Shown one piece after another: positions 1 through 11,108 of a stretch of DNA of 11,108 bases. A program made the position numbers and the translations under genes. The notes beneath the pieces were generated by a model. The model did not search any database. It was given only the letters and a program-made list of their open reading frames with translations, and was not told the DNA's origin. Position 1 is the first letter of the stretch; each line of letters starts with the position of its first letter. The DNA comes from a virus: UHGV virus genome UHGV-0246901; one strand, written 5' to 3'.

Positions 1-28
1 GCTATCAGGACTTTTATATAAAAAGTTG

Positions 29-3603: not shown

Positions 3604-3864
3604 ATGAAAATTGAACACTGCTATGAGTCTGACGGAACACCTATCCGTTGTCCACATTGTGGGTGTACAGACTTGCAAGGTGAAGTTCATGTGATTGTTA
3701 ATGGTCATATAGCTGAAGAAAGTACTACATGTGTTGGTTGTGGTGAGCAACTATCATTCTGGGCTTATGGTTCATACCAACCTGCACCACACTTAATCTA
3801 CCATAGCAATAAAGCTGTGAAGAATGTTATCAACTGGTTTATTAAGAAAGGATTTACAAAATGA
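3604..3864 (+). CDS. zinc-ribbon-like small protein (86 aa)
   Basis: TAAATG junction with upstream gene; two CxxC pairs (CPHC and CVGC) ~26 aa apart; stop overlaps frd start (ATGA). Confidence 0.7.
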   Translation: MKIEHCYESDGTPIRCPHCGCTDLQGEVHVIVNGHIAEESTTCVGCGEQLSFWAYGSYQPAPHLIYHSNKAVKNVINWFIKKGFTK

Positions 3865-4407: not shown

Positions 4408-5307
4408 ATGTCACAAGCAGATACAAGTTACAAAAATATCCTGAACCATGTTTTATCCGTTGGTGAACTGCGTACTACAAGAACTGGAGATGTTATCTCT
4501 GCATTTGCTCCACCACAGTTTCGCTTTGATATGCGTACTGGTTTTCCACTCTTAACATCTAAACAGGTGTTTACACGGCAAGTTATTGGGGAAGCTTTAT
4601 GGTTCCTGAACGGTGAGAATAAGCTTGGTGAACTTCGTTACCGTACTTGGGGTGAAAATGATGGGGAACGCTGGACTATCTGGTCAGATGATTTTAAACG
4701 CTGGTTAAGCTCTAATTATTCCTCTGAACAAGACTGGTTAGAGGATGCAGGTGGTAGAATCTACGGGGTTCAGTGGAGAAACTTTGAGGGTCATAATGGT
4801 TGTGTTGTAGACCAGTTAGAAACCTTAGTAACGAAGATGAAAGGTGATATCACAGACCGTTACATGCTTGTTAATGCTTGGAATGCAGCAGATATTTCAG
4901 CTAACTCGATGGCTTTAGCACCTTGCCATGTTCTGTTTCAGATTTATATCACTAATGAAGGTGAAGTTGACTTACAATGGTATCAGCGTTCTGTAGACAC
5001 CTTTTTAGGACTTCCGTTTAATATTGCGTCTTATGGCTTCATCTTAGAAGTTCTTTGTAAGATGACTGGATACACTCCACGATACTTGATAGGTGTCTTT
5101 GGAGATACTCAGATTTATCATAACCATATGAAGCAGGTCTATGAACTGATGAACAATGAAGAGTTTCATGCACCTACTTTTGAGATTGGTGTACAGCTTA
5201 ACACTTTAAGTGACTTAAAACATCTTACTGCAAGTGACTTTATTGGTGGAATTATCAACTACCAACATGCAGGGAAGATTGAAGCACCTCTGTCAGTAGG
5301 CAAGTAA
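4408..5307 (+). CDS. td: thymidylate synthase (ThyA type)
   Basis: RTGD, LWFLNG, NAWN, ALAPCH (catalytic Cys), QRS.D.FLGLPFNIASY and GDTQIYHNH motifs match ThyA-family thymidylate synthase; ORF is uninterrupted. Confidence 0.95.
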   Translation: MSQADTSYKNILNHVLSVGELRTTRTGDVISAFAPPQFRFDMRTGFPLLTSKQVFTRQVIGEALWFLNGENKLGELRYRTWGENDGERWTIWSDDFKRWLSSNYSSEQDWLEDAGGRIYGVQWRNFEGHNGCVVDQLETLVTKMKGDITDRYMLVNAWNAADISANSMALAPCHVLFQIYITNEGEVDLQWYQRSVDTFLGLPFNIASYGFILEVLCKMTGYTPRYLIGVFGDTQIYHNHMKQVYELMNNEEFHAPTFEIGVQLNTLSDLKHLTASDFIGGIINYQHAGKIEAPLSVGK

Positions 5308-5350
5308 AACAAAAAAGGCTCCCGTAAAAAGGAGCCTTAAACTTTATTTT
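5305..5350. terminator. bidirectional rho-independent terminator between convergent operons
   Basis: Stem AAGGCTCC(5315-5322)/GGAGCCTT(5331-5338), 8-nt loop. On the minus strand it is followed by a long T-run (complement of A-rich 5305-5314), a strong terminator for the gene ending at 5344; on the plus strand followed by AAACTTTATTTTT (weaker). Confidence 0.7.
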
Positions 5351-5715
5351 TCAGTATTCTTTGTGTTCTTTTCAGTAATAGCTTGGAGGGCTGATACTGA
5401 TTGAGCCAGATTGTTCACACTGTCAGAAAATTTATCAAGAGTTTTGGTAAGTTTTGCGTTTTCACCCTTAACATTCTCTAACTGAACTTTCTGGTTCTCC
5501 ATCCCTAGCTGAATCAGTCTCATGTCAGACTGTAAATCACGAATAGCTGAATAGTTACTTTTGGAATAATTATCCAACTGCTGTAACTTTGTTGTGACAG
5601 ACACTTCTTGTTTACCACTTGAAACTTGCATCGTGGTATACATCCCAATAACACTAAAAATACCAACTACAATTGCACCAATATTATTTTTAAAAGCTTC
5701 CTCTAGCCACTTCAT
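5344..5715 (-). CDS. membrane-anchored coiled-coil protein (123 aa); possible i-spanin-like or holin/exclusion-type protein
   Basis: N-terminal hydrophobic helix IGAIVVGIFSVIGMYTT followed by Q/L/N/K-rich heptad-like sequence; strong SD GGGGGAG; TAAATG junction with upstream gene. Function is a guess from topology only. Confidence 0.65.
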   Translation of the reverse strand: MKWLEEAFKNNIGAIVVGIFSVIGMYTTMQVSSGKQEVSVTTKLQQLDNYSKSNYSAIRDLQSDMRLIQLGMENQKVQLENVKGENAKLTKTLDKFSDSVNNLAQSVSALQAITEKNTKNTEK

Positions 5716-5910
5716 TTATTTCTCCCCCTTAAAAGCTTTTTCTAAGTTATCTACGAACTCATCATCAATAGGTGTGTCTGTTTTACTCGCAAGGTATCTT
5801 GCAAGCCTAAAGAACACTTTCTCAATCATGTATTCACTTAGAAGGGATAAAATGAGTTTCCAGAAGAAGCTACCTAGATTTTTTAGAAGAATTGCTAGGA
5901 TTGTAGGCAT
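5716..5910 (-). CDS. small membrane protein (64 aa); possible holin-like
   Basis: Hydrophobic segment ILAILLKNLGSFFWKLILSLL and acidic C-terminus; SD GAGGTG ~5 nt upstream; first gene after a sigma70-like promoter. Confidence 0.55.
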   Translation of the reverse strand: MPTILAILLKNLGSFFWKLILSLLSEYMIEKVFFRLARYLASKTDTPIDDEFVDNLEKAFKGEK

Positions 5911-5953
5911 TTAATCACCTCATCAGCCAAGATGGTGAGAATACCCATAAAGA

Positions 5954-5982
5954 ATATTAACACCATCTTAACAATCAGTCAA
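5954..5982 (-). promoter_or_regulatory. sigma70-like promoter on minus strand (TTGACT, 17-nt spacer, TAATAT)
   Basis: Reverse complement of 5977-5982 is TTGACT and of 5954-5959 is TAATAT, 17 nt apart; lies in the 64-bp gap between the tail-fibre gene and the small membrane-protein genes. A 7-bp inverted repeat GATGGTG(5931-5937)/CACCATC(5961-5967) overlaps it. Confidence 0.5.
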
Positions 5983-5989
5983 CAAGGGA

Positions 5990-8380
5990 TTAAGCAGTTC
6001 TTACCCAAGCCATTAACTTGTAGAACTGGTTAGTAACACTAAATGCTGAACCAGAACCTGTACCACCAGTGTTACCACTAACTGTATGAGTGTGAGCACC
6101 GATACCTACAGAGTGGGTGTGAGCACCAGTGTTACTTGTAGTACCAGACCATGTGTGTGTATGGTTACCAGTTGTGTTAGTGTTAGGGAATTTGTTATCA
6201 GTTCTGTCAAGCCAGTCAAGAGTTCTTGTCTTATTGTTACCAATAGTGGTATATCCGTACTGAGCATCACCACCATTAACCAATAGCAGACCTAAGTGGT
6301 GAGCGTGGTTACCAGCAGCACTTGTTGTACCACTTACAGAGTGAGTATGACCACCAGTGCTATTAGTGTTCTTCGTACCATAATCAAAAGATGAAGTGGT
6401 AGCAGAGAAACTATGGGTGTGTGAAGGCAGATTACCAACAGCTAACGTCACAGAGTCTGAACCACCTGTTGTAGCAACATCTGAACCGTTTGCTGCTGCA
6501 ATCCTGATAGTTCTACCAACACCATTGTTCAGGTACGTCCAAGTTAACCCAGGAAGTGCTGTATTAGGGTCAACGTTGCTGTTAAACCACGTTACAATAC
6601 CTACTGGATAGATTTTATTAAGGTCTGTAGAGTCACTTACTGCCTGTGCAATCTTCTGGTCAGTTTCAGCTTTAGTGTATGCACCAATATCTGAAGGGGT
6701 TGGTTTAAAGGCAGTTGTATAAATCTGTGCTTCTCCGGCATAGTCACCATTTTTGTCATAGGCATAGGTAAATGTTGCCAGTCCATTTGAGCCATACACA
6801 AAAGAGATTCCTCTTGCATGTGCAGCAGTCTTATTAGAGTGAGCAACATGAATTGCCAATTCTTTCAGTCCACTAGTAACCGCATTGTTTCTGACAAAAC
6901 CTGAATATCCAAGATTAAAACCTGAAGGGTTTTCAAGGTTATCTACAGAGACAGTCATTAAGGATTGGTTTAATAACTGAGTTTTAACAAAATATCTAGC
7001 ATCTAAGTTAGACCAATCAGAAGGTTGAACTTGACCAGTAATGGTTAGATTCTTATTAGCCTTAATCGCTGAAGGCATAAGGGTAATTTGAGTCCCAGAG
7101 TAGCTGTTGTTTAAGGCTACATCAGTAGAATTTGTGCCACCTACACCTACCCACCACCTAGATACATTCGCAGTATCAACACCACGGATATATTGTGGCT
7201 GCCCCTGTGTCAAGTTCCTCAATACTAGACCTTCATTGTTAGATACAATAGTCTGCACATTTGTAAAAGTGTTAGCCACATTAACCTTAGCAAGATTACT
7301 CAAAGTAGCTGCTGGAATATATCTAGAGTCGATATTAGCCCAATCAGAAGGTTGGACTTGACCAGTGATTCTAAAATTATTGTTTACTGCGACATGCCCA
7401 TTGTCAAGTCTAAGATAAGAACCATACACATAGTTGCTGATGAATACAGCAGGTGTATTATCACCATTTCCTACATACCACTTACCAGAACCATCATTAG
7501 CTTCGGCTTTAACGTATAGTGCAGCATTTGCTACAGTATTTTTCAACCTTAAAGCAGCACTATCACTGATAATAAGTAGGTTTCTGCTAAACGTGTTAGT
7601 GCCAGTGAAATTGTTATTGGCAGCTAACTGTGCAAATCTCTGATTAGCTGCTGTCTGAGTAAAGTATCTAGCATCTAAGTTAGAGAAGTCAGAAGGTTGC
7701 ACTTGACCATTGATTGATAAAGACCTATTAAAAGAAGCAGCCGTGCCTAGAGTGAGGATGGAACCTAGTTTACTCTCGATTTGAACATCAAGACTACCCC
7801 TAATCAGGTTCCCAATAGCCCAAGTTTTTTCATTGCTTGCATCCCTACCTACAATAGCAGAGTATGCACTATCCCCACTCACAGGAGATTTTAGTGTTAA
7901 CTGTTCCCCATTTGCTACAATGGTCTGTTTAGAGTTAAATGTGTTTGTAACAGCAAGCCTTGCGTATCTTGCATCATTCTCTTCATTAGTTCTCATCCCA
8001 AGTTCATTAGGACTTGGCTTATTCAGAGTATGATAAACAGTTGCCGACCTTGAAGCGTCTGCAATAGTTAGTTTAAGGCCGTTTGCGTTGATTTTAAAAG
8101 TCTTTAAAACATCCCCAATAGTAATCTCAGAAGAGCCTGTAGGGTCAAAGACTGCCTTGCCACCGTAAAGTAACTTAACAATTCCTAAGTCACCCTTCAT
8201 AGTGCTACCAACAATCTGAACAAATCTTTCAAGTTTAAAAGATGCTAAGAAGTCTTGATAGGTCATTCGACGGTCTTCATCACCCAGCATTTCAGGTCTC
8301 TTTTTAACTCTGACATGAAGAAGGTCATCTGAATGGATTGTATCGATTGAGTTTAATTCACTCAACTTGTAATCTGCCAT
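5990..8380 (-). CDS. tail fibre protein (796 aa) with collar-like domain and His-X-His repeats
   Basis: Three internal repeats each ending GQVQPSD(W/F)xN(L/I)DxRY; C-terminal segment resembling the phage tail-collar domain (LPGLTW...GNLPSHTHSF); 6-7 HxH motifs (HTHS, HAHH, HTHT...); C-terminus ...MAWVRTA shared with the 395-aa paralogue. Confidence 0.85.
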   Translation of the reverse strand: MADYKLSELNSIDTIHSDDLLHVRVKKRPEMLGDEDRRMTYQDFLASFKLERFVQIVGSTMKGDLGIVKLLYGGKAVFDPTGSSEITIGDVLKTFKINANGLKLTIADASRSATVYHTLNKPSPNELGMRTNEENDARYARLAVTNTFNSKQTIVANGEQLTLKSPVSGDSAYSAIVGRDASNEKTWAIGNLIRGSLDVQIESKLGSILTLGTAASFNRSLSINGQVQPSDFSNLDARYFTQTAANQRFAQLAANNNFTGTNTFSRNLLIISDSAALRLKNTVANAALYVKAEANDGSGKWYVGNGDNTPAVFISNYVYGSYLRLDNGHVAVNNNFRITGQVQPSDWANIDSRYIPAATLSNLAKVNVANTFTNVQTIVSNNEGLVLRNLTQGQPQYIRGVDTANVSRWWVGVGGTNSTDVALNNSYSGTQITLMPSAIKANKNLTITGQVQPSDWSNLDARYFVKTQLLNQSLMTVSVDNLENPSGFNLGYSGFVRNNAVTSGLKELAIHVAHSNKTAAHARGISFVYGSNGLATFTYAYDKNGDYAGEAQIYTTAFKPTPSDIGAYTKAETDQKIAQAVSDSTDLNKIYPVGIVTWFNSNVDPNTALPGLTWTYLNNGVGRTIRIAAANGSDVATTGGSDSVTLAVGNLPSHTHSFSATTSSFDYGTKNTNSTGGHTHSVSGTTSAAGNHAHHLGLLLVNGGDAQYGYTTIGNNKTRTLDWLDRTDNKFPNTNTTGNHTHTWSGTTSNTGAHTHSVGIGAHTHTVSGNTGGTGSGSAFSVTNQFYKLMAWVRTA
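6990..7716 (-). repeat. three dispersed ~50-bp direct repeats inside the 796-aa tail-fibre gene (about 6990-7045, 7314-7370, 7661-7716)
   Basis: Core CCAATCAGAAGGTTGAACTTGACCAGT (plus strand) recurs at ~335-bp spacing; first and third copies also share ATCTAGCATCTAAGTTAGA. They encode the GQVQPSDW..RY ends of three tandem protein repeats. Confidence 0.7.
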
Positions 8381-8426: not shown

Positions 8427-9614
8427 TTAAGCTGTTCTCTGCCATACATACAGGACGAAGGATGGCTGCTCAATGTTGAAAGCTTGTCCACCACCAACAC
8501 TATTAGTGTTCCCGCTATGCGTATGCTCAGAAGAAGAAACTGTTACAGTGCCATTGTGTGTATGTGAACCAATACCAACTGTGTGGCTGTGAGCACCAAT
8601 ACCAACCGTATGGTTGTGGTTACCAGTTGTATTAGTGGTAACACTGAAAGAGTGGGTGTGTGCACCAGCTACTTCACAGACAGCATCTGCTGAGTACCAT
8701 GATTGGTCATTCCTTGTAGACCAAACCATTGCAGGTCTTTCCGATAAACCACCACCTGCTTCATAGGTCAATCTGTGGTTGTGAGCACCAGCAGAACTTG
8801 TTGACCCACTACCAACATGGTTATGGTTACCAGTCGTGTTAGTGGTCTTAGTTCCATAGTCAAAAGAGTTAGTAGTCTTAGTTCCATAATCAAAAGCTGA
8901 AATTGACACCGTTGCATTATGAGTATGACCACCACCACTAAGAGACACAGAGTGAGAGTGTTGAGGCATGTTATTAACTGACAAAGTGACAGTTGAAGCA
9001 CCAAATACAGAACCTGCTGGTCTTGTGTCAGAGTCATAACCAACCAATGCTCTACCCTTTGAAACTAACTCCCAAGTACCTCCACAAATTAAATATGTAG
9101 AGGGGTTTGCAGAGTTCATGGAAAGATGGATAGTACCTACTGGATAGGAAGCCTGAACAGCCTTGTACAAGTTATTTACTGCTCTTGCTGTAGCGTACTT
9201 ATCTGCATCCTCATTATAAAGGTTAGATGTTGTCCAGTTCTGAACATTACTCAATCCTACCTGTGCCTTAGTTGTATTGTGTGGGTTGCTCTTGTCCTGA
9301 ATATGCTGTTGAACAAGGTTATTAACCTCTTCTGAAGACATAATCTGTAGATTTGCTCTTGCCTCAGCTACATTAACAACATCTGATAAGTTATTTGCAG
9401 CAACTAACTGAAGAGCATTAATAACATTATCTAAACCAATTTGTGTTTTAGTAACACCATGAGGGTTATTTCTTAGGCTTGAGTGTGGAGCAAGTAATTG
9501 CTCAAGAGTACATCTCTTATCCTCAATACCTTGCTTAAGATGGAAGATATCACTAAGGTCAATTGGTAAGGCTGCTTGAGGCAAGGCACTAATTTGAATT
9601 TCACCTACCGCCAT
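8427..9614 (-). CDS. tail fibre protein (395 aa), paralogue of the 796-aa protein
   Basis: N-terminal repeats NPHGVTKTQIGLDNV / NPHNTTKAQVGLSNV (phage tail-fibre repeat-like); collar-like segment ICGGTWELVSKGRALVG...NNMPQHSHSVS; nine HxH motifs; C-terminus ...VWQRTA; SD AGGAG ~8 nt upstream. Confidence 0.85.
   Translation of the reverse strand: MAVGEIQISALPQAALPIDLSDIFHLKQGIEDKRCTLEQLLAPHSSLRNNPHGVTKTQIGLDNVINALQLVAANNLSDVVNVAEARANLQIMSSEEVNNLVQQHIQDKSNPHNTTKAQVGLSNVQNWTTSNLYNEDADKYATARAVNNLYKAVQASYPVGTIHLSMNSANPSTYLICGGTWELVSKGRALVGYDSDTRPAGSVFGASTVTLSVNNMPQHSHSVSLSGGGHTHNATVSISAFDYGTKTTNSFDYGTKTTNTTGNHNHVGSGSTSSAGAHNHRLTYEAGGGLSERPAMVWSTRNDQSWYSADAVCEVAGAHTHSFSVTTNTTGNHNHTVGIGAHSHTVGIGSHTHNGTVTVSSSEHTHSGNTNSVGGGQAFNIEQPSFVLYVWQRTA
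8841..8900 (-). repeat. in-frame 30-bp tandem duplication within the 395-aa tail-fibre gene
   Basis: 8841-8870 and 8871-8900 match at 26 of 30 positions and encode a tandem SFDYGTKTTN repeat; the 796-aa paralogue has a single FDYGTKNTN. Confidence 0.8.
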
Positions 9615-9616
9615 TA

Positions 9617-11108
<1,492 letters not shown>

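Follow-up and report, generated by a model that had tools for sequence, protein, structure and literature searches.

What do two short genes, placed between the end of a tail-fibre gene and a terminator, contribute to a Felix O1-like phage, and how are they expressed? We addressed this question in a stretch of 11,108 nucleotides from the UHGV virus genome UHGV-0246901 (the whole of it is called the window here), which comes from a Felixounavirus (98.7% identity to phage XTG1) and in which the gene order equals ORF77-78-79-td of Felix O1. Both open reading frames announced in a preliminary description are present on the minus strand (5910..5716, 64 aa; 5715..5344, 123 aa), and they are homologues of ORF78 and ORF79, respectively. 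The locus consists of the following elements:

5990..8380, minus strand: gene of the distal tail fibre, 796 aa, homologous to Felix O1 ORF77 (phrog_4277 tail fiber, E = 0; tail fiber label in relatives)
5992..5990, minus strand: tail-fibre stop codon, inside the outer stem of an intergenic hairpin
5716..5910, minus strand: 64-aa gene, Felix O1 ORF78 homologue, assigned to the PM2 gp l / P18 family (PF26925, phrog_402)
5344..5715, minus strand: 123-aa gene, Felix O1 ORF79 homologue (phrog_4038)
5315..5338, no strand: bidirectional intrinsic terminator (terminator scan), common to the convergent thymidylate synthase gene (4408..5307, plus strand)

The terminator equals t79/t80 of Felix O1 (Whichard 2010, Table 2). 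Purifying selection on both small genes is strong, as measured against phage Michonne (pN about 0.05, pS 0.64-0.76), and dN/dS of the 64-aa gene is about 0.04.

A lysis role is the best-supported reading for both of these predicted membrane proteins. The pair itself has mostly been described before, as a homologue of a known lysis helper followed by the usual "putative holin"; the sole new element of the locus is an RNA hairpin, and the understanding of phage lysis is unchanged by these results. Felix O1-like phages are used in Salmonella diagnostics, biocontrol and therapy; in the searchable literature we found no experimental work on either protein in these phages.

Profile searches assign the 64-aa protein to the PM2 gp l / P18 family

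In PHROG profile searches the 64-aa protein matched phrog_402 with an E value of 3.7e-22, and PM2 gp l matched the same phrog_402 (E 8.2e-14). When the two were compared by hhalign, the probability was 93.4% (E 2.5e-7), with 38% identity across 42 aligned columns, and the family PF26925 (Phage_PM2_Gpl) was precomputed for all 60 of 60 homologues, the 97-100% identical ones included. These profiles place the 64-aa protein in the PM2 gp l / P18 family (PF26925, phrog_402). PMC1950889 states that P18 homologues occur in Felix 01 and RB49, and the presence of a P18-type protein in Felix O1 was reported in 2007. The preliminary reading of the two products as small membrane proteins stands as a prediction, but this family membership had been missed. 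The elements concerned are:

5842..5907, minus strand: helix 1 of the 64-aa protein, residues 2-23, hydrophobic (AlphaFold2)
5755..5781, minus strand: T-x-T-x-x-D-D-x-F motif, residues 44-52, conserved in the family
5921..5916, minus strand: SD sequence GAGGTG of the 64-aa gene

The AlphaFold2 model (pLDDT 83) has helices at residues 2-23, 26-42 and 47-63: the N-terminal one is hydrophobic, the second is basic and amphipathic, and the C-terminal one, behind TxTxxDDxF, is acidic. This is the layout of the family, whose members have 50-80 residues, hydrophobic and amphipathic helices and a conserved acidic-helix motif. In family alignments, F33, F34, T46, D49, D50 and F52 are invariant, E26 and T44 nearly so, and a fold search with the model against viral structures returned family members only.

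According to PMC1950889, PMC9502842 and PMC6356626, which cite Krupovic 2007, P18 of PM2 is needed for disruption of the outer membrane, the last step of lysis, and P17 is the holin. By analogy with PM2, the 64-aa protein may thus have an outer-membrane function in lysis.

P18-like genes adjoin holin or cell-wall enzyme genes in unrelated phages

Unrelated phages have family members directly beside a holin gene (PM2 P17, T4-type T) or the gene of a cell-wall enzyme. Phage_holin_T immediately follows the P18-like gene in four T4-like contexts, which differ in the tail-fibre gene ahead of the pair (Peptidase_S74-type, Gp10_C-type, gp38). The P18-like gene adjoins a Phage_lysozyme endolysin inside the replication region of Vibrio phages, and in one further context a DUF5675 protein with a His...Cys motif, putatively YkuD-like by inspection; in PM2, the P18-family gene overlaps the P17 holin gene. 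In Grimontviridae and Lahexavirus podophages, head genes lie on one side of the P18-like gene and tail-fibre genes on the other, no membrane protein is encoded next to it, and this context counts against an explanation of the pair as a lysis pair. When IMG/VR loci were scanned for P18-like genes, most of the contigs obtained were Felix O1-like, and new contexts were few.

The ribosome-binding site of the 64-aa gene is buried in a predicted RNA hairpin

The region between the tail-fibre gene and the 64-aa gene folds, by prediction, into a single composite structure:

5911..5993, minus strand: composite RNA hairpin, 32 pairs (MFE -33.2 kcal/mol, z = -6.4)

The hairpin spans from the tail-fibre stop codon to the SD sequence of the 64-aa gene. 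In its outer stem, AAUCCCUU just past the tail-fibre stop pairs with the SD region GAGGUGAUU of the 64-aa gene; an inner stem of 12 pairs is formed by GUUAAGAUGGUG and CACCAUCUUGGC; and an apical stem of seven pairs contains the -10 hexamer of a promoter-like site, the first two -35 bases of which fall within the outer stem. Over 15 distinct sequences the consensus structure has -29.9 kcal/mol, and the changes among them include many that preserve wobble pairs and one compensatory pair. RNA folding gave an unpaired probability of about 0 for the SD of the 64-aa gene.

The 7-bp inverted repeat that had been noticed here is present, but its size was understated: the arms of 15 nt (5929-5943 and 5955-5969), 87% complementary, are the core of the 32-pair hairpin. 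An operator was considered and rejected, as the arm AAGATGGTG occurs six times in the window where 3.3 are expected, no more than chance, and is not found at other promoters in the genome of the close relative Mushroom. An RNA structure that masks the ribosome-binding site (RBS) is a better reading of the inverted repeat than an operator. An intrinsic terminator, as annotated with WebGeSTer in phage ASO1B, was rejected as well, the stem being followed by GGCUGAUGAGG with no T-run; the terminator scan of the window did not find the hairpin, TransTerm for Felix O1 did not list it, and Rfam had no family for it or anywhere in the window.

A third candidate was a model of the T4 gene e type, in which an internal promoter frees the RBS. 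On the short transcript, however, the predicted energy of opening the RBS is higher, not lower (about 13.5 versus 8-10 kcal/mol), and an alternative masking pairing on this transcript recurs in four diverged sequences. The short transcript is thus predicted to mask the RBS again, and the activation logic of T4 e is not supported.

A conserved promoter-like site lies within the hairpin

5954..5982, minus strand: sigma-70-type promoter-like site (-35 TTGACT 5982..5977, 17-nt spacer, -10 TAATAT 5959..5954)

This site, with an extended -10 TG at 5962..5961, has a predicted transcription start at about 5948-5946. It had been called a near-consensus sigma70 promoter just after the tail-fibre stop. 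The position is right, as the -35 hexamer begins 8 nt past the stop codon (5992..5990), and the motif and the 17-nt spacer are there, but "near-consensus" is generous for a 9/12 match plus TG. A loose promoter pattern was found 24 times in the window versus 30.1 expected, so that the motif alone is no more than chance.

It is possible, although somewhat doubtful in our view, that the motif is not a working promoter at all, that the two genes are expressed only by late read-through from the tail-fibre gene, and that the hexamers are parts of an RNA hairpin which would control translation, processing or stability. Besides the 9/12 match and the chance-level frequency in the window, this reading has on its side the placement of the -10 in the apical stem and of two -35 bases in the outer stem of a conserved structure (z = -6.4); as the hexamers lie within conserved RNA stems, their conservation may reflect RNA structure alone. 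Natural variants carry TTAACT or TAACAT, the motif is absent at this place in Hafnia and Erwinia relatives, whose intergenic region differs and includes a true terminator, and it is not among the Felix O1 promoters predicted by Whichard 2010. On the other hand, the hexamers and their 17-nt spacing are kept, with varying flanking bases, in nearly all of 38 Felixounavirus, Mooglevirus and Suspvirus sequences (the window plus 37 loci from three genera), and in the same loci indels are present on both sides of the hexamers and never between them. The extended -10 TG also argues for a promoter. So does the rarity of the strict pattern TTGAC[AT]-16..18-TAWWWT in the Mushroom genome (87.7 kb), where it occurs six times versus 2.1 expected (6 was reached in 8 of 200 simulations) and where, in our reading of the annotation, most of the six copies are located just upstream of genes.

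Expression data point in the same direction: in end-point RT-PCR of Felix O1 the maximum was at 5 min for ORF79, at 25 min for ORF78 and at 60 min for ORFs 76/77, and ORF78/79 were thus detected before ORF76/77 (Whichard 2010). The same RT-PCR was noisy, with the major capsid gene also scored as "early" (Whichard 2010), and in the literature we found no transcriptome or transcription start study of a Felix O1-like phage. The earlier suggestion that the pair is also expressed independently of late transcription is therefore weakly supported, by hexamer conservation and by this RT-PCR.

The 123-aa protein is a candidate holin with a predicted coiled coil

5629..5682, minus strand: predicted membrane helix, residues 12-29 of the 123-aa protein (hydropathy)
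5350..5610, minus strand: continuous coiled-coil helix, residues 36-122 of the 123-aa protein (AlphaFold2)

The start codon of the 123-aa gene abuts the stop codon of the 64-aa gene (TAAATG), and the gene has a strong SD of its own, GGGGAG. In the AlphaFold2 model, a helix at residues 2-31 is followed by a single helix of 87 residues (36-122), about 13 nm long, in which one heptad register has 68% hydrophobic a/d positions; the long coiled coil reported for this protein is thereby confirmed. N-terminal hydrophobic helices had been reported for both proteins, and both have one, but the hydrophobicity is borderline, the best 19-residue Kyte-Doolittle mean being 1.56 for the 64-aa and 1.62 for the 123-aa protein. 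The latter thus has one borderline hydrophobic helix, in which Gly, Ala, Ser and Thr account for 7 of the 18 residues in the window and for 6-9 of 19 in relatives, and a C-terminal part of 94 residues. Balanced charges on either side of the helix leave the orientation of the protein in the membrane ambiguous; the N-terminal RRK of a distant homologue, P0238, favours N-in.

The family is restricted to Ounavirinae, with six representatives among 1.84 billion in an exhaustive search, one of the six being a spurious coiled coil. Word-index searches returned near-identical Felixounavirus proteins only, Pfam and NCBIfam gave no family, and a profile search of the PDB gave generic coiled coils only. 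The idea of an exclusion protein found no evidence, PADLOC giving a single weak match of coiled-coil type (E 0.0025). The gene stays paired with a P18-like gene in Felixounavirus, Mooglevirus, vB_SflM_004 (a related unclassified Ounavirinae phage), Hafnia phages and Erwinia Kolesnikvirus, and the pairing is kept even though identity of the 123-aa protein across those genera is as low as 25%.

Many GenBank and UniRef records label this protein "holin" or "putative holin", labels that were propagated by annotation, and ORF79 was among the holin candidates of Whichard 2010. Public annotations conflict, as the holin label is given to the 123-aa gene in some and to the DUF7338 gene in others. DUF7338 (Mushroom gp87), the other annotated "holin" of the group, has homologues of 56-62% identity in T4-like phages, which, we presume, normally carry holin T; this makes DUF7338 a weaker candidate. 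That a P18-like gene lies upstream, as it does of holin T in RB49-like phages, is a reason to take the 123-aa gene as the first holin candidate. By analogy, then, we infer that the 123-aa protein may be a holin or a holin-like inner-membrane partner, since it fills the slot that holin T has after the P18-like gene in RB49-like phages and shares the helix-coiled-coil build of P17.

Sequence comparisons with holins were negative. The 123-aa protein did not match Pfam PF11031 (Phage_holin_T) in a library in which an RB49-type T control reached 4.5e-61, hhalign with PM2 P17 (gp k) gave 0.3% probability, the two proteins are in different PHROGs (phrog_4038 versus phrog_32586), and holin phrog_1296 was matched at only E 0.06. 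This lack of detectable similarity to any characterised holin counts against the explanation as a lysis pair. Early sigma-70-driven transcription, which would be unusual for a holin, counts against it too.

We also considered an early role for the 123-aa protein, as a periplasm-facing regulator or protective factor (a T4 RI-type antiholin, a lysis-timing sensor or an Sp/Imm-type exclusion protein) and not a holin, with a weakly hydrophobic SAR-like helix as its anchor and the P18-like gene merely co-located; we think this unlikely. It would fit the sigma-70-like promoter directly upstream, the 5-min maximum of Felix O1 ORF79, the helix rich in Gly, Ala, Ser and Thr and of borderline hydrophobicity (1.62), the rIIA/rIIB genes of the group, and the predicted masking of the 64-aa RBS on the promoter-derived transcript, which would leave the 123-aa protein as the main product. 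However, PHROGs, Pfam, NCBIfam and PADLOC showed no similarity to antiholin or exclusion families, T4 RI and Sp have globular domains in the periplasm and not a single long coiled coil, the pairing with a lysis-family gene is constant in distant genera, and the RT-PCR evidence is weak.

Endolysin and spanins are encoded elsewhere in the genome

Phages of this group encode their endolysin and their true pair of spanins elsewhere in the genome. Genomes of the Felix O1 group have an overlapped i-/o-spanin pair at another locus (i-spanin phrog_1152, E 1.7e-41), the o-spanin of relatives being a protein with the lipobox IMSGC, and such a separate pair in Felix O1-group phages was described by Kongari 2018. 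In agreement with the preliminary description, which saw neither an endolysin nor an o-spanin partner here, positions 5300-6000 contain no endolysin gene and no conserved lipoprotein ORF. The frame search for an embedded lipoprotein, proposed at the same time, gave one lipobox-like ORF:

5520..5666, minus strand: embedded 48-aa ORF, TTG start, lipobox-like MVFLVLLGC (ORF listing)

As an o-spanin it was rejected: it has an early stop in Felix O1, is interrupted by stops in Michonne and vB_SflM_004, and is absent in Hafnia and Erwinia relatives.

A spanin-like pair bridging the envelope, in which the 123-aa protein would act as an i-spanin analogue and the P18-like protein would replace a lipoprotein o-spanin, is quite improbable. 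An N-terminal membrane helix with an 87-residue helix of about 13 nm would suit such a role, weak matches to Rz-like spanin PHROGs were obtained (phrog_739, E 0.009; phrog_214, E 0.036), and according to Kongari 2018 and PMC9502842, P18 disrupts the outer membrane in PM2, which is spanin-less. Those matches, however, are at the noise level of coiled coils, Felix O1-group genomes have their bona fide overlapped pair at another locus, the i-spanin of that pair shows no similarity to the 123-aa protein, and a conserved lipoprotein partner is missing. The earlier proposal of an i-spanin is unlikely on the same grounds. As spanins are already encoded, an extra outer-membrane factor is not obviously needed, which counts against the lysis-pair explanation, and the locus raises the question of what role a P18-type factor has in phages that already have spanins.

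It is hardly credible that the genes serve tail-fibre or virion morphogenesis (e.g., as a membrane-anchored assembly factor) and not lysis: P18-like genes are usually beside receptor-binding genes (they follow gp37/gp38 in T4-like phages and the tail fibre in Ounavirinae, precede the tail-fibre cluster in Grimontviridae/Lahexavirus, and share a late operon with spike P1 in PM2), but the constant T4-like neighbour is holin T and not a given fibre gene, the Vibrio phage neighbour is an endolysin in the replication region, the virion proteome of Felix O1 contains neither product (Whichard 2010), and the PM2 gp l mutant has a lysis defect according to PMC6356626 and PMC9502842.

A structure-gated accessory lysis unit as a possible explanation

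Taking the above together, we consider the chances to be evenly balanced that the gene pair is an accessory lysis unit with which the late tail-fibre operon closes in Felix O1-like myophages. In this explanation, read-through late transcripts would carry the stable hairpin, with the SD of the 64-aa gene paired with bases past the tail-fibre stop, and translation of the 64-aa gene would mostly depend on melting of the outer stem by ribosomes that reach the end of the tail-fibre gene. The sigma-70-like promoter inside the hairpin may add a shorter transcript, on which the 64-aa RBS would be masked again and the 123-aa gene, with its own strong SD, would give the main product. The hairpin hiding the RBS of the P18-like gene would then be a small example of structure-gated expression of a lysis gene.

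A more far-reaching version, a PM2-type P17/P18-like pair run by a two-transcript RNA switch beside endolysin and spanins, seems improbable to us. Here, an early transcript made by the host polymerase and starting within the hairpin would yield only the 123-aa protein, and the P18-like protein would be made only late, its SD being freed from a stem about 75 nt away that is melted by ribosomes terminating on the tail-fibre gene. If this were true, the final step of lysis would be tied to tail-fibre synthesis, and P18-type proteins would be a widespread lysis function alongside spanins in tailed phages.

Comparison with known systems

The closest known counterpart of the 64-aa protein is gp l / P18 of the corticovirus PM2 (gene XVIII), which it resembles in size, in helix layout, in its place at the end of a late operon and in adjoining a protein with a single membrane helix and a coiled coil. 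It is 13 residues longer at the N-terminus than PM2 gp l, and the phage is a tailed myovirus with endolysin and spanins, whereas PM2 has no spanins. The order of the partner genes is also reversed, P17 then P18 in PM2 and P18-like then 123-aa here; the function of P18 is known from PM2 genetics only. With the PM2 holin gp k / P17, the 123-aa protein shares an N-terminal membrane helix, a heptad-like helical tail and a P18-family neighbour, but there is no detectable sequence similarity, and P17 has 53 residues versus 123 here.

The gene of holin T (class III, PF11031, gene t after 37/38), like that of the 123-aa protein, is the last of a tail-fibre operon; in RB49-like phages it directly follows a P18-like gene, and it converges with the neighbouring transcription unit. 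Both proteins have a single membrane helix, in the 123-aa protein by prediction, with a larger C-terminal domain. The periplasmic domain of holin T is globular and of about 160 residues, whereas the C-terminal part of the 123-aa protein, a candidate holin with no sequence match to T, is a single coiled-coil helix of 87 residues. Lambda Rz-type i-spanins likewise have an N-terminal anchor and a helical periplasmic coiled coil; the 123-aa protein differs from them in having no partner lipoprotein, similarity at noise level and, in its own phage group, spanins elsewhere.

As for expression, read-through transcripts of T4 gene e keep its SD sequestered in a hairpin that also contains a late promoter, and translation of the MS2 lysis gene is coupled to termination of the coat gene. 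The locus described here resembles both: the RBS of a lysis-related gene is buried in a predicted hairpin, a promoter-like site lies inside it, and the masking strand abuts the upstream stop codon. It would differ from T4 gene e in that the promoter-derived transcript is predicted to mask the RBS once more by alternative pairing.

The two small genes and their surroundings

Over the 1 kb around the two small genes, the window shares 98.7% identity with Enterobacteria phage XTG1 and with many further Felixounavirus genomes; 356 phage records have a match to this region. The pair corresponds to ORF78 and ORF79 of the Felix O1 reference record, located between the tail fibre ORF77 and td. The gene order in the window is as follows.

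Features at and around the two small genes
9614..8427, minus strand: first tail-fibre gene
8380..5990, minus strand: second tail-fibre gene
5910..5716, minus strand: 64-aa ORF
5715..5344, minus strand: 123-aa ORF
5338..5315: bidirectional terminator

From the other side, thymidylate synthase and dihydrofolate reductase genes on the plus strand run towards this terminator. Both small ORFs are real genes, as had been proposed: against phage Michonne, pN is about 0.05 and pS 0.64-0.76, with synonymous sites near saturation. The hydrophobic N-termini attributed to both products were modelled as helices by AlphaFold2, though their hydrophobicity is borderline (Kyte-Doolittle 1.56 and 1.62). Both tail-fibre proteins carry repeated His-x-His motifs (GNHTHT, GAHTHS and similar) at their C-termini, reminiscent of the metal-binding HxH repeats of T4 gp37/gp12 fibre tips.

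Most of what this locus contains, that is P18 homology and the "putative holin" label, is essentially known already. The sole new element is a conserved hairpin that is predicted to hide the ribosome-binding site of the P18-like gene and that contains a promoter-like site.

A conserved hairpin predicted to mask the ribosome-binding site of the P18-like gene

The preliminary description mentioned a 7-bp inverted repeat. The repeat is indeed present, but its arms are 15 nt long (5929-5943 / 5955-5969, 87% complementary). As RNA, the interval between the tail-fibre stop codon and the 64-aa gene start is predicted to form a three-tier hairpin (−33.2 kcal/mol, z = −6.4). In the outer stem, AAUCCCUU, which lies immediately 3' of the UAA stop codon, is paired with the Shine-Dalgarno region, GAGGUGAUU; the inner stem of 12 pairs comes from the inverted repeat, and the apical stem holds the −10 hexamer. 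This hairpin is kept over 15 distinct sequences (consensus energy −29.9 kcal/mol), which show many pairing-preserving changes from G-U to A-U or G-C and one compensatory pair; in Mooglevirus, an extra A provides a partner for the U left bulged in the window. Rfam has no family for the hairpin, and its arm sequence was not found at other promoters. The WebGeSTer annotation of an intrinsic terminator in phage ASO1B was rejected, as the hairpin has no U-tract; Hafnia and Erwinia relatives have a true terminator at this intergenic place instead.

In read-through transcripts, the Shine-Dalgarno sequence of the 64-aa gene is predicted to be fully paired. A transcript from the predicted start near 5947 would lack all the 5' arms and could be expected to free the ribosome-binding site, as in T4 gene e. 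This logic is not supported, because the short transcript is predicted to refold, pairing UCACC with GGUGA and GGGUAUU with the AUG region, and thus to mask the ribosome-binding site again in all four diverged sequences tested. The predictions are consistent with a model in which translation of the P18-like gene would require ribosomes to terminate at the tail-fibre stop codon next to it. The 123-aa gene has a strong Shine-Dalgarno sequence of its own (GGGGAG) and joins the 64-aa gene at TAAATG; it would be expressed from either transcript.

The promoter-like motif

The motif described as a near-consensus sigma70 promoter is exactly where it was placed (TTGACT, 5982..5977; 17 nt; TAATAT, 5959..5954), and TG precedes TAATAT, giving an extended −10; with 9 of 12 consensus positions matched, however, "near-consensus" was generous. 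A loose promoter pattern is no commoner in the window than by chance (24 found, 30.1 expected). The standing of this motif is raised by its conservation and by the frequency and placement of similar sites. Across 38 sequences from Felixounavirus, Mooglevirus and Suspvirus (the window and 37 loci) the hexamers hardly vary: two loci have TTAACT and one has TAACAT. The 17-nt spacer is constant, with substitutions and indels on either side. The stricter pattern TTGAC[AT]-16..18-TAWWWT occurs only 6 times in the 87.7-kb genome of phage Mushroom against 2.1 expected, and most of these sites lie, by our reading of the annotation, just upstream of genes. We found no transcription start site study of a Felix O1-like phage in the literature. 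End-point RT-PCR of Felix O1, in which the maximal score came at 5 min for ORF79, 25 min for ORF78 and 60 min for ORFs 76/77, fits an independent transcription start, but the table is noisy, as the major capsid gene was likewise scored "early".

Two identical promoter-like units, TTGACACTGGTTTTTAGATAGATTAAATT, precede small early genes on the minus strand of Mushroom (coordinates 79796 and 78929), each followed by a GGGGAGGG...CCTTCCCC hairpin; promoter-plus-5'-hairpin units thus recur in this phage group. Two Erwinia Kolesnikvirus loci have a TTGACA-17-TAnnnT motif some 110 nt ahead of the P18-like gene; within ~25 nt after the motif comes a strong intrinsic terminator, itself followed by the gene. 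Such a layout might represent an attenuator or a target for antitermination.

Other features of the window

On the plus strand, an ORF-free stretch of ~490 nt (1330-1823) between a 146-aa ORF and a signal-peptide ORF looks regulatory or origin-like, and has no Rfam match. It contains a terminator (1341-1356), two 86-nt direct repeats (1360-1445 and 1609-1694, 74% identical) built of TTTTAAAAGGTCTTTAAA...GGGTCTTTTAA and GGT-rich tracts, two 33-nt repeats (1439-1471 and 1566-1598, 91%), a 20-nt palindrome (1478-1518) and, at its end, a predicted TTGACA-17-TATTTT promoter (1751-1779) flanked by a 19-nt inverted repeat. Two plus-strand genes, both "hypothetical" in relatives, encode a 127-aa protein (1824-2207) whose signal peptide (MKKILLAAAMVMAMNLPVNA) looks cleavable and an 86-aa zinc-ribbon-like protein with two CxxC pairs (3604-3864).

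The 64-aa protein belongs to the PM2 P18 family

Judged by sequence, the 64-aa protein is a homologue of PM2 P18 (gp l). It has no match in local copies of Pfam and NCBIfam; four other results settle the family. The protein matches phrog_402 (E 3.7e-22). PF26925 (Phage_PM2_Gpl) is precomputed on all 60 of 60 homologues from a large protein database. Aligned with the family profile, the product of PM2 gene l (9922..10077 of the PM2 genome, 51 aa) scores 93.4% probability (E 2.5e-7, 38% identity across 42 columns), and it also matches phrog_402 (E 8.2e-14). The family constants are a hydrophobic helix, a conserved Glu, an FF pair and a T-x-T-x-x-D-D-x-F motif. The preliminary interpretation was partly right: both products are lysis-type membrane proteins, but the P18 family itself had been missed.

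Papers that cite Krupovic et al. 2007 describe P17 (gp k) as the holin of PM2 and P18 as necessary for outer-membrane disruption. P18 homologues were noted in "PaP3, Felix 01, and RB49" and several cyanophages (PMC1950889), so the Felix O1 homology has been in the literature since 2007; the GenBank label of the gene is still "hypothetical". In Mushroom, the P18-like gene (gp57, 36859-36960 of locus L003) is annotated from a wrong, downstream start as 33 aa, and the full 64-aa reading frame is intact.

Neighbours of P18-like genes

In four contexts from RB49-like T4-type phages, the P18-like gene lies directly upstream of holin T (PF11031), and the preceding fibre gene varies (Peptidase_S74-type gp37, Gp10_C-type fibre or gp38 adhesin); the constant neighbour is the holin, and no particular fibre gene. 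In PM2 the P18 gene overlaps the P17 holin gene. In Vibrio phages the P18-like gene follows a Phage_lysozyme gene within a replication region, and in a TARA contig a DUF5675 protein whose His...Cys motif we take to be putatively YkuD-like. The main counter-example to strict lysis linkage is Grimontviridae and Lahexavirus, where the gene lies between head and tail-fibre genes with no adjoining membrane protein.

The 123-aa protein as a possible holin or holin-like partner

The 123-aa protein consistently accompanies the P18-like gene as its downstream partner in Felixounavirus, Mooglevirus, the related Shigella phage vB_SflM_004 (unclassified Ounavirinae), Hafnia phages and Erwinia Kolesnikvirus, even though identity falls to ~25%. 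Its coiled coil, already recognized in the preliminary description, is real: it is modelled as one helix (residues 36-122), and 68% of the a/d positions are hydrophobic in one heptad register. In vB_SflM_004 the homologue (1501-1788 of locus L007) is shortened at about residue 90 (C-terminus ...KLCMFLYV); either the coiled coil can do without its last third, or the sequence contains an error. Few relatives exist: six matches among 1.84 billion representatives in an exhaustive HMMER scan, including fragments and one spurious giant coiled-coil protein. There is no Pfam or NCBIfam family, and PDB matches are generic coiled coils only.

What, then, might this protein do? A defence role received no meaningful PADLOC match. 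Nor are the two small proteins virion components, the Felix O1 virion proteome being without either. The suggestion of an i-spanin fails, since an overlapped two-component spanin is encoded elsewhere in Felix O1, Mushroom, Moogle, JH2 and wV8 (Kongari 2018), the Mushroom pair being genes 123/124; the endolysin gene is also at another locus in the Mushroom annotation. The 123-aa protein has no similarity to the true i-spanin of the group, and its matches to PHROGs of Rz-like spanins and of holins are no better than noise (E 0.009-0.06). Across all frames of 5300-6000 there is a single lipobox-like ORF (5666..5520, ...LLGC...), which is not conserved.

Many records call the 123-aa protein "holin" or "putative holin" and many others "hypothetical"; the label is widespread though unproven, and gp79 was among five holin candidates (Whichard et al. 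2010). A "class III holin" label in Mushroom (gp87, 16949-17506 of locus L004) sits on a 185-aa DUF7338/phrog_2143 protein in the tRNA cluster. Homologues 56-62% identical to it occur in many T4-like phages (JS10, Lw1, Klebsiella and Enterobacter phages), and such phages normally carry holin T, which makes DUF7338 the weaker candidate and its label doubtful. From its position and its build, we infer that the 123-aa protein may be the holin or a holin-like partner. It has no sequence similarity to PM2 P17, with which it shares the build of a membrane helix plus a coiled coil.
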